DNA of 64,000 nucleotides from Escherichia coli (GTDB taxonomy: Bacteria > Pseudomonadota > Gammaproteobacteria > Enterobacterales > Enterobacteriaceae): the NCBI RefSeq assembly GCF_013122565.1, contig NZ_CP053258.1. One strand, written 5' to 3'. Below, one piece after another: positions 5,701 to 8,700 of the stretch. Position 1 is the stretch's first letter. Each line of letters opens with the position of its first letter. The position numbers are program-made.

Positions 5701-8700
5701 TGAAAACGGCGCGTATTCTGACCGTCTGCGTGGCGGTAATGTTGCTGTTGAGCGCATGGGGATTGTTCGATTTCTGGAACTGGCTGCAAAACGGCGCGGG
5801 GCAGAAAACCGTAGATATCCTGATCCGTATCGCACTCATTCTTTTCTTCTCGGCGGTTGGCTGGACAGTGCTCGCCAGTTTGATCGAAAACCGGCTGGCT
5901 TCGGATATTCATGGCCGCCCGCTACCCAGCGCCCGTACGCGTACCCTGCTGACGCTGTTCCGTAACGCGCTGGCGGTGATTATCAGTACCATCACCATCA
6001 TGATTGTGTTGTCGGAAATCGGCGTCAATATCGCGCCATTGCTGGCAGGTGCCGGGGCATTAGGTCTGGCTATCTCGTTTGGTTCGCAAACGCTGGTGAA
6101 AGATATTATCACCGGGGTATTTATTCAGTTTGAAAACGGCATGAACACTGGAGATTTGGTGACTATCGGGCCGTTGACCGGCACTGTGGAACGGATGTCG
6201 ATTCGCTCCGTGGGCGTGCGCCAGGATACCGGGGCGTACCACATCATTCCGTGGTCTTCGATTACCACCTTTGCCAACTTTGTCCGCGGCATTGGTTCGG
6301 TAGTGGCAAACTACGATGTTGATCGCCATGAAGATGCTGATAAAGCCAATCAGGCACTGAAAGATGCGGTAGCGGAATTAATGGAAAACGAAGAAATTCG
6401 CGGGCTGGTTATTGGTGAACCGAACTTTGCCGGGATTGTCGGCTTAAGCAATACCGCGTTTACACTGCGTGTTTCGTTCACCACGCTGCCACTCAAACAG
6501 TGGACGGTCCGCTTTGCCCTCGACAGCCAGGTGAAAAAACATTTCGACCTGGCAGGTGTTCGCGCGCCAGTGCAGACTTATCAGGTGCTGCCTGCTCCGG
6601 GCGCGACCCCGGCTGAACCGTTACCGCCTGGGGAGCCAACGCTTTAACGCTGGCGATTGACAAAACGGCGGCGCTGCTCGTCGTTCATAAAGGTCCAGGC
6701 AATAAAGCGACTCTGCTTTTGCCCCTGGGCCATCTCTTTTTTAACCACCTTCACCGCGCCCACGTCCGTCAGGGCACGATACAACGGCGGTAAGTTTTCA
6801 CCACGAGATACCAGTGAAGTAAACCACATCACACGCTTCGCGAAGCCTTTGCTCTCTTCAATCATCTTTTTGATAAAGGTGACTTCACCGCCTTCACACC
6901 ACAACTCCTGTTGCTGGCCACCAAAGTTCAGTGCATCGTCTTTGTTCAGCCCCAGGTTACGGCGTTTACGCTCACTACCTGCCCGCGCCGCAGCGGCGGA
7001 ATTGTGGAATGGCGGGTTACACAAGGTCGCGTCGTATTGCTCGTTTTTATGGATGATGCCGTTAAAAATCGCCCCACTCTCTTTTTGCCGACGCAGACGA
7101 ATGGCGCGATTAAGCCCCGGATTAGCACTGATGATCGCCTGCGCACTGCTTAACGCCTGGCTGCTGGTTTCACTACCGGTAAAACGCCAGCCATATTCAT
7201 GTACGCCAATCAGCGGATAAATACAGTTCGCACCAACGCCGATATCAAGAATGCTGGCATTCGCTGGAATTGTTCCGCTTGCTTCTGCCAGTAAATCGGC
7301 AAGGTGATGAATATAATCCGCCCGGCCCGGTACTGGCGGACAGAGAAAACCGTCCGGGATATCCCAGTTCGCTACGGCGTAAAAATGGGCCAGCAACGCC
7401 TTATTGAGCGCCTTCACCGCCAGCGGATTGGCAAAGTCTACGCTTTGCTCCCCGGCGGGTGTAAGCGTGAGGAATTGCCTGAGTTCAGGATTGACCTGAC
7501 AAAGCGTGGCGAGATCGTAGCGGCTGTGATGACGGTTGCGCGGATGCAACCCCGGTTTCTGGGCGGACATAGCATTCTCCTTTAAGCAGCGGCGTAAGAT
7601 ACCCGCATAACGCGACAGGGTAAATATCTGGCTGCGTTTATCATTCCCCAAAACCTTAACATGGCTATGGTTTATGGCAATTCATCATAAAAATCAGCAT
7701 TATGCATGTCATTGATTTGTCTTATTTTGTAAAAATATATCGTTCAAAAAATAAGCATATCTCTGTCAATTTTTTGCGTCATTTTCATCGCCCAAGCGAC
7801 CTACACTTATCAGGCACTACCCGTTGTATTTATGAGGATGTCATTATGAAAAAGTGCCTCACACTACTGATTGCCACCGTCCTGAGCGGAATCTCTCTCA
7901 CGGCTTATGCCGCGCAACCGATGAGTAACCTGGACAGCGGTCAGCTACGGCCCGCCGGTACCGTTTCGGCAACTGGCGCATCAAACCTAAGCGATCTGGA
8001 GGATAAACTGGCAGAAAAAGCGCGCGAGCAAGGCGCGAAAGGTTATGTCATTAATTCCGCAGGCGGAAATGACCAGATGTTCGGTACTGCAACCATCTAC
8101 AAATAACCCCACCAACGTAACTGCATTCGCCTCTGGATGCAGTTTTCGTCTGTTTTGTAATCAAAAAACATCAAATATGAACGCAATGTAAATAAATGTA
8201 TTTCTTTTTCGCACAATGGGTGATAGAAAATCGCGCCAAGTGATAATGCTTATCAAAATTATTATCACTTGCACGAGTACTATCACGAGATTAACAGTGG
8301 CATCGCATCCGCAGAGAGGCTTTCTCGTGGCAGTGAAAATTTCAACATATAAGAAAAAGTCACCTGCAAAATGGAAAACAATCGCAATTTCCCTGCCAGA
8401 CAATTTCATTCGCTCACGTTCTTTGCCGGTCTTTGTATTGGCATCACGCCTGTGGCTCAGGCACTCGCCGCCGAAGGGCAAACTAACGCGGATGACACGC
8501 TGGTTGTCGAAGCATCAACGCCTTCGCTTTATGCGCCACAACAATCTGCAGATCCGAAATTCTCGCGTCCGGTAGCGGATACTACCCGCACGATGACGGT
8601 GATTTCTGAACAAGTGATTAAAGATCAGGGCGCAACCAACCTTACCGATGCGCTCAAAAACGTCCCCGGCGTGGGTGCGTTTTTTGCGGGTGAGAACGGT

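Follow-up and report, generated by a model that had tools for sequence, protein, structure and literature searches.

The mcbA–fiu–ybiX–ybiI locus

The subject of this analysis is the control of fiu and its neighbor ybiX by the regulator Fur in Escherichia coli, and in particular a Fur operator at the fiu promoter. The window studied is a 64,000-nucleotide (nt) stretch of contig NZ_CP053258.1 (RefSeq assembly GCF_013122565.1), and positions refer to this window unless a K-12 coordinate is named. Positions 7600–11800 hold the E. coli mcbA–fiu–ybiX–ybiI locus, with all four genes on the plus strand. Of 5426 complete E. coli genomes, 5421 have a match to this region (identity up to 98.9%), and the fiu promoter region was likewise found in 5421 of the 5426.

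Gene coordinates were taken from the annotation of the best-matching E. coli locus, which is 98.9% identical. The first gene, mcbA, occupies 7846–8106 and is followed by fiu (8371–10653), which encodes a TonB-dependent catecholate siderophore receptor of 760 amino acids. Fiu is full-length, scoring 1500.9 bits against the NCBIfam equivalog NF007349 (cut-off 686), and carries the Pfam domains Plug and TonB_dep_Rec_b-barrel. Next comes ybiX (10695–11372), encoding a PKHD-type 2-oxoglutarate/Fe(II) hydroxylase of 225 amino acids that is also full-length (517.8 bits against NCBIfam equivalog NF003972, cut-off 399, with Pfam in agreement). The last gene of the locus, ybiI (11446–11712), is assigned by annotation, Pfam, and NCBIfam to the DksA/TraR-type C4 zinc-finger proteins. 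The gap between fiu and ybiX, which are on the same strand, is exactly 41 nt. For comparison we used 39 orthologous loci with full-length fiu, obtained from a scan of one genome per species; ybiX lies 40–212 nt 3′ of fiu in every one of them.

The Fur operator and its conservation

The original prediction placed a strong, canonical Fur box at 8242–8268 in front of fiu. The coordinates are correct: these bases read GATAATGCTTATCAAAATTATTATCAC and lie within a 29-bp near-palindrome, GTGATAATGCTTATCAAAATTATTATCAC (8240–8268), whose outer arms are GTGATAAT and ATTATCAC. A search of the whole window for the 7-1-7 Fur motif TGATAATNATTATCA, allowing up to two mismatches, returned just two matches, both inside 8240–8268 and offset by 12 bp: TGATAATGCTTATCA at 8241–8255 (one mismatch) and TCAAAATTATTATCA at 8253–8267 (two mismatches). 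All other sites in the window have at least three mismatches to this motif. The number of matches expected by chance, estimated from dinucleotide shuffles, is 0.26, and two matches anywhere in the sequence arose in 4 of 100 shuffles.

The classic 19-mer GATAATGATAATCATTATC has no match at three or fewer mismatches in the 64 kb, and the 19-mer search was replaced by a full mismatch ranking together with the 7-1-7 motif. By this ranking, the best 19-mer match of the whole window (15/19) falls at 8242 on the minus strand, and there are two overlapping 14/19 matches besides. Compared with the motif TGAnAATnATTcTCA derived from chromatin immunoprecipitation with exonuclease digestion (ChIP-exo), the operator shows a single mismatch among the strongly conserved positions and has an A instead of the weakly conserved c. 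The operator is a good Fur box, far beyond chance expectation, and imperfect when held against the textbook 19-mer. A strong match it certainly is, being the sole 7-1-7 pair in 64 kb and the best 19-mer of the window, but at 15/19 the word "canonical" is slightly generous. We found no other Fur-like site between mcbA and fiu, and no separate Fur site for ybiX, ybiI, or mcbA (best candidates with 4–7 mismatches).

The 29-bp box is base-for-base identical to the Fur site of the fiu promoter in K-12 MG1655. The 260 nt upstream of fiu differ between the two strains by six substitutions, all of them outside the box, and the 41-nt gap differs by one substitution downstream of the hairpin described below (AACTTGT vs. 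AAATTGT). Gene order (mcbA–fiu–ybiX–ybiI), gap length, and the hairpin itself are the same in MG1655. The operator is, in other words, the same element as the MG1655 fiu Fur site, in another E. coli lineage. In three further E. coli strains picked because they diverge here, the box is invariant and flanking positions vary.

Conservation of the operator extends well beyond the species. A pair of 7-1-7 motifs, or a single one, lies at −109 to −132 relative to the fiu start codon in 34 of the 39 orthologous loci, which span about ten named genera, and one more locus (L019) has 7-1-7 motifs at −189/−201. The motif lies at about −130/−118 in Escherichia, Citrobacter, Klebsiella, Raoultella, Leclercia, Silvania, and Enterobacter, and at about −121/−109 in Pseudocitrobacter. 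Over an alignment of 20 sequences, column identity is 0.86 in the box, 0.84 in the −35 region (8220–8226), and 0.86 in a block further upstream (8185–8209, see below), versus 0.53–0.65 between and downstream of these elements. The Fur box is conserved at equal distance from fiu over most of the Enterobacteriaceae genera sampled.

Predicted layout of the fiu promoter

The box lies ~130 nt before fiu. Between mcbA and fiu, our promoter scan returned a single good sigma-70 match, which pairs a predicted −35 hexamer, GTGATA (8220–8225, plus strand), with a predicted −10 hexamer, GATAAT (8242–8247, plus strand), across a 16-nt spacer, and scores 9/12. The −10 hexamer lies inside the Fur box and is invariant, or nearly so, in the alignment, and the −35 hexamer is conserved as well. 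As predicted from the sequence, the box would start at the −10 element and span the expected transcription start near 8254, which implies a leader of ~115 nt. The earlier suggestion that the box overlaps the likely fiu promoter agrees with this layout. A promoter-like match on the minus strand (8286–8258) was dismissed because there is no upstream gene on that strand, mcbA being co-directional with fiu.

Upstream, mcbA is followed by a terminator-like hairpin with a U-rich tail (8119–8144, plus strand; folding energy −15.9 kcal/mol, z = −3.3), which probably shields the fiu promoter from upstream transcription. Expression of mcbA does not respond to deletion of fur (log2 change 0.40, not significant; PMC10164565 supplement). 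Because of this hairpin and the unresponsiveness of mcbA, we consider that the fiu promoter acts on its own. Neither the fiu leader nor the fiu–ybiX gap matched a known RNA family in Rfam.

Published Fur binding and derepression

Fur binding at the fiu promoter has been mapped by ChIP-exo in MG1655, where a single peak is assigned to the fiu–ybiX unit, upstream of fiu (PMC10164565). This peak, P24, spans 840869–840893 and is labeled "fiu-ybiX, Intergenic" (PMC10164565 supplement). We read these coordinates as the older K-12 numbering, which is offset by 777 bp at the fiu locus; the current numbering would place the peak inside fiu. Converted accordingly, P24 corresponds to window positions 8232–8256 and covers the better of the two 7-1-7 sites. 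The same 777-bp offset puts data from ArcA chromatin immunoprecipitation (ChIP), explicitly reported on U00096.2, and from genomic systematic evolution of ligands by exponential enrichment (SELEX) in sensible places.

The expression data are equally direct. In MG1655 RNA sequencing, deletion of fur raised fiu from 40 to 1860 (log2 change 5.47), ybiX from 9.8 to 387 (5.21), ybiI from 20 to 191 (3.04), and ybiJ from 29 to 82 (1.24) (PMC10164565 supplement). The levels in the W3110 fur deletion were 2375 (fiu), 405 (ybiX), 72 (ybiI, log2 change 5.3), and 33 (ybiJ), and across strains the log2 change was 5.2–10.0 for fiu in nine and 4.5–7.1 for ybiX in eight (PMC10164565 supplement). In the analysis of Gao et al., fiu belongs to the core regulon of Fur across nine E. 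coli strains, and fiu, ybiX, and ybiI are all members of the Fur-1 iModulon (PMC10164565). That the oxygenase gene ybiX would be under iron control through Fur, as had been proposed from the sequence, is borne out by its derepression to nearly the same degree as fiu and by the ChIP-exo peak on an identical K-12 sequence.

Fur control of fiu–ybiX is, in fact, already known, given that a fiu reporter has been used for decades and that the Fur dependence of ybiX appears in several genome-wide data sets. Strain H1780 (fiu::lacZ) is a standard reporter of Fur function (PMC3050691), fiu–ybiX is listed among known Fur-target operons and a fiu promoter–lacZ fusion responds to Fur (PMC4676285), and ybiX was earlier predicted to lie in a proposed fiu_ybiX operon with Fur-dependent expression (PMC3136457). 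The main text of Chen et al. (2007) makes no mention of fiu, ybiL, or ybiX (PMC2189734), and we found no published Fur footprint of the fiu promoter in the literature searched. What the present analysis adds is modest: a phylogenetic footprint of the Fur box across genera, an explicit link between a conserved intercistronic hairpin, a published RNA 3′ end, and a 5:1 RNA ratio (next section), and a conserved block at 8185–8209 that coincides with a published ArcA peak lacking a called ArcA box.

The fiu–ybiX gap

The original prediction held that ybiX is probably co-transcribed with fiu. The 41-nt gap, the co-derepression of the two genes, and their conserved adjacency are all in favor, and two papers treat fiu–ybiX as an operon (one of them PMC4676285). 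The gap, however, is not free of terminator-like sequence. A terminator scan and RNA folding identify at 10661–10683 (plus strand) a hairpin with stem arms GTGGGGC and GCCCCAC and loop GCAG, followed directly by TTTTT. The stem has 7 bp, of which six are GC pairs, and the folding energy is −19.4 kcal/mol (z = −2.55). The ybiX Shine–Dalgarno sequence, GGAG (10684–10687, plus strand), sits right behind the T-tract, 7 nt from the ATG. A Term-seq RNA 3′ end at MG1655 839219(−), classed as "primary" for fiu (PMC7815308 supplementary file 1), lies 30 nt past the fiu stop codon, on the fifth T of the tract (window position 10683). With the hairpin, the T5 tract, and a mapped RNA 3′ end between the genes, co-transcription would amount to partial read-through, and the original statement needs this qualification.

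The RNA levels published for fur deletion strains fit such an arrangement. As computed from the data of PMC10164565, the derepressed ybiX:fiu RNA ratio is constant at ~0.17–0.21, so that ybiX RNA reaches about one fifth of the fiu level, and levels after fur deletion drop stepwise from fiu to ybiX, ybiI, and ybiJ. In addition, an insertion sequence in the fiu–ybiX gap has been read by the authors who described it as cutting ybiX off from its promoter.

A GC-rich stem of 7–9 bp is present in all 30 of the short orthologous gaps examined. Its loop varies (GCAG, GTAA, GAAA, TTCG, TCAA, GCAA, and others), and the stem itself comes in distinct types, GTGGGGC in Escherichia/Citrobacter versus CGGGGCG in Klebsiella/Raoultella, with the register slipped by one pair. 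This slippage between lineages is the reason that the hairpins were tallied sequence by sequence: RNAalifold, applied to a MAFFT alignment of the gaps, gave a meaningless consensus of three pairs. The distance from hairpin to ybiX ATG is constant (16–21 nt), and a purine-rich GGAG, GAGG, or GAGA follows the hairpin in 28 of the 30 orthologs, with GGCGAG in the two others, both Pantoea gaps. The number of Ts in the 8 nt past the stem, however, ranges from 1 to 5 among the 30, so the conserved feature is the stem and not the terminator tail. The hairpin is best read as a leaky terminator, as a structure protecting the 3′ end of fiu mRNA, or as both.

Some gaps depart from this pattern. In Pseudocitrobacter (three loci: L015, L029, and L034), a palindrome resembling repetitive extragenic palindromic (REP) elements replaces the short hairpin. 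In E. whittamii and Escherichia sp. MOD1-EC7003 (L005 and L006), where the gap is 212 nt, there is a 171-bp insertion with REP sequences; it has a degenerate copy of the stem on one side and, on the other, just before ybiX, an intact copy of the hairpin.

A model for fiu–ybiX control and its alternatives

We conclude, with a probability of roughly 0.93, that 8240–8268 is the Fur operator of the fiu promoter and that ybiX is controlled from the same operator by read-through, at a level below that of the receptor. From this analysis come the motif and its statistics, the placement of the box across the predicted promoter, the conservation of the box, and the hairpin with its own conservation. 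Published work on the identical K-12 sequence supplies occupancy by Fur, expression that depends on Fur, and the RNA 3′ end. From these we infer promoter occlusion as the mode of repression, the position of the transcription start, and read-through as the source of ybiX RNA.

The mechanism that we envisage is as follows. Under iron sufficiency, Fe2+-Fur dimers would occupy the two 7-1-7 sites 12 bp apart, covering the −10 hexamer and the presumed start so that RNA polymerase is excluded. Under iron limitation Fur would depart, and fiu would be transcribed with a 5′ leader of ~115 nt. Most fiu transcripts would then stop, or be trimmed, at the GC hairpin and U5 tract 30 nt past the fiu stop codon, and about one in five would run on into ybiX, whose ribosome-binding site lies directly behind the U-tract. 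A smaller share would continue into ybiI. The oxygenase would in this way be iron-controlled from the fiu operator and set lower than the receptor.

Could the box be a chance resemblance in AT-rich DNA, or the site of another regulator, with Fur acting on fiu from elsewhere? Promoter regions are AT-rich, the 19-mer match is just 15/19, and ArcA also binds the mcbA–fiu intergenic region in vivo (PMC4676285, PMC3798270). Yet the box contains two adjacent 7-1-7 matches where 0.26 would be expected in 64 kb, the phylogenetic footprint falls exactly on the arms of the motif, and the ChIP-exo peak overlaps the better half-site. The center of the ArcA peak is ~50 bp away on the upstream side and falls on another conserved block, and the region between mcbA and fiu holds no further Fur-like site to which control could be reassigned. 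Taken together, the motif statistics, the phylogenetic footprint, and the overlapping ChIP-exo peak leave practically no room for an origin of the box by chance or as a site of another regulator.

The hairpin raises a different question, namely whether fiu is effectively monocistronic, with an efficient terminator behind it and with ybiX transcribed from its own promoter (in the gap or within the 3′ part of fiu) under separate or indirect iron control. A terminator-like hairpin with the "primary" fiu 3′ end mapped to the end of its T5 tract is what such an arrangement would produce, ybiX RNA does amount to about one fifth of fiu RNA upon derepression, and there is a weak RpoE-holoenzyme SELEX peak inside fiu (PMC5493296). 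However, the two genes are derepressed almost identically in MG1655 (log2 5.21 for ybiX, 5.47 for fiu), derepression of ybiX recurs in eight strains, and the single Fur ChIP-exo peak of the unit in MG1655 is upstream of fiu. The 400 nt leading up to ybiX contain nothing Fur-like (five mismatches in the best candidate), and the promoter scan gave no plus-strand match in the last 1 kb of fiu. Moreover, the stepwise fall in RNA from fiu through ybiX and ybiI to ybiJ is what read-through predicts, and the U-tract is short and absent in some genera. We therefore regard an effectively monocistronic fiu, with an independent and separately regulated ybiX promoter, as very improbable.

Several points nonetheless weigh against control of both genes from the one operator, or against parts of that interpretation. 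The classic 19-mer match is no better than 15/19, and in the Pantoea and E. ludwigii group the box is 6 bp shorter and a poor match. The 777-bp offset used to position the ChIP-exo peak was deduced from the "Intergenic" label and two other data sets, and the overlap of the box with the −10 hexamer and the start depends on a promoter match of 9/12 to the consensus. As regards ybiX, a minor promoter within fiu is conceivable in view of the weak RpoE SELEX signal there (PMC5493296), and the mapped 3′ end and 5:1 fiu:ybiX RNA ratio could stem from differential RNA decay instead of termination.

Relation to known systems and significance

The closest regulatory parallels are the cirA, fepA–fes, fhuA, and fhuE operators (Chen et al. 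2007, PMC2189734), in which overlapping Fur sites follow a hexamer register, with spacing in multiples of 6, cover sigma-70 promoter elements, and act by occlusion. The fiu operator would resemble these, with sites over a predicted promoter and a presumed repression by occlusion. It differs in having two strong sites offset by 12 bp, with the intermediate 6-bp register weak in E. coli (five mismatches); this register is stronger in Klebsiella michiganensis.

In gene content, the locus resembles piuA–piuC of Pseudomonas and cciT–cciO of Caulobacter, where a Fiu-type transporter likewise stands beside a YbiX-type dioxygenase (PMC12004947). Both cciT and cciO are directly Fur-regulated, and the transporter–dioxygenase pairing is syntenic across Proteobacteria (PMC12004947). 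As for the gap, fiu–ybiX has a GC-rich hairpin after a highly expressed upstream gene, an RNA 3′ end at that hairpin, and less RNA downstream. Intercistronic stem-loops or REP elements, for example in malE–malF, set unequal expression within operons, and the fiu–ybiX hairpin would be comparable. It may terminate transcription or may only block 3′ exonucleases; its U-tract is present in E. coli and is not conserved.

The arrangement is of practical interest as well. Catechol-conjugated antibiotics such as cefiderocol can enter the cell through Fiu, and disruption of ybiX together with loss of cirA has recently been linked to raised cefiderocol minimum inhibitory concentrations. The exact wiring of fiu–ybiX, comprising its operator, the leaky hairpin between the genes, and an RNA ratio of ~5:1, therefore has to be taken into account when resistance mutations are interpreted, and this applies to insertions in the 41-nt gap as well.

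A probable ybiI promoter and an upstream ArcA-associated block

The spacer between ybiX and ybiI contains a promoter-like sequence, TTGAAC-16-TATATT (11376–11403, plus strand; promoter scan). A genomic SELEX peak of the RpoS holoenzyme at 837732 in the old K-12 numbering (intensity 19.6; PMC5493296) converts to ~11393 and coincides with it, as do weaker peaks of minor sigma factors. It is probable that ybiI has its own promoter besides read-through, which fits its higher basal level and the smaller effect of Fur on it. The gene is partly co-derepressed with fiu–ybiX.

The block at 8185–8209 (plus strand; ATGTAAATAAATGTATTTCTTTTT) sits ~20 bp upstream of the fiu −35 region and is a candidate ArcA site or UP-like element. 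Its column identity of 0.86 compares with 0.54–0.60 in its flanks (20 sequences, about nine named genera), and it contains the direct repeats TGTAA and TGTAT 11 bp apart, which is the direct-repeat spacing of ArcA. An ArcA ChIP-seq peak for fiu is centered at 840921–840928 (U00096.2), and its authors called no ArcA box there (PMC3798270 supplement). The peak center converts to window position ~8200, within the block.

It is tempting to go further and suppose that the GC hairpin, whose stem persists in the 30 short gaps although loop, flanks, and U-tract drift, is a selected tuning device that fixes, or conditionally adjusts, the ~5:1 receptor:oxygenase ratio (e.g., by regulated read-through or processing), and that the TGTAA-N6-TGTAT block at 8187–8201 is an ArcA operator that has escaped recognition and accounts for the reported dependence of fiu expression on oxygen. 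We consider this proposal speculative and unlikely.

Additional observations

Term-seq also reports two RNA 3′ ends internal to genes of the locus (PMC7815308 supplements). The one at MG1655 841454(−), window position ~8448, is 77 nt into fiu (around codon 26), and could reflect premature termination or processing of the leader/signal-peptide region. The other, at 838863(−), corresponds to position ~11039, 344 nt into ybiX. In E. coli P276M (L050), fiu is annotated as a pseudogene. The −35 region and Fur box are intact in this strain, and replacement or divergence affects the sequence upstream of ~8205, which takes in mcbA and the conserved upstream block. Fragments of E. coli fiu (99%–100% amino acid identity) also occur in a metagenome-assembled genome labeled uncultured Bacteroides sp. 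(L027) and on two very-low-coverage contigs of <400 bp in a Streptomyces sp. DH24 assembly (L043 and L044). These are almost certainly contamination or mis-binning in public records.

Elsewhere in the window, two segments depart from K-12. Between dinG and rhlE, a 4.3-kb segment (16928–21220) replaces the 0.74-kb ybiA region of K-12. It includes an open reading frame (ORF) of 670 amino acids (17115–19127, minus strand) whose catalytic domain is SopA-like, of the kind found in HECT-like E3 ligase effectors, and another of 561 amino acids (19432–21117, plus strand) with no Pfam match. The second segment that is not collinear with K-12 lies around ybhM (31919–35828). Its ORFs have weak matches to SUKH-4 immunity and Bax1-I (both just below the Pfam cut-offs) and a match to DUF3969, and its ybhM-related part is only 92.6% identical to K-12. 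Rfam matches above the gathering score comprise a molybdenum cofactor (Moco) riboswitch upstream of moaA (39405–39549, minus strand; 102 bits), the REP-derived naRNA4 near ybiJ/hcxB (12244–12314, plus strand), and the small RNA ES036 (40814–40855, plus strand).

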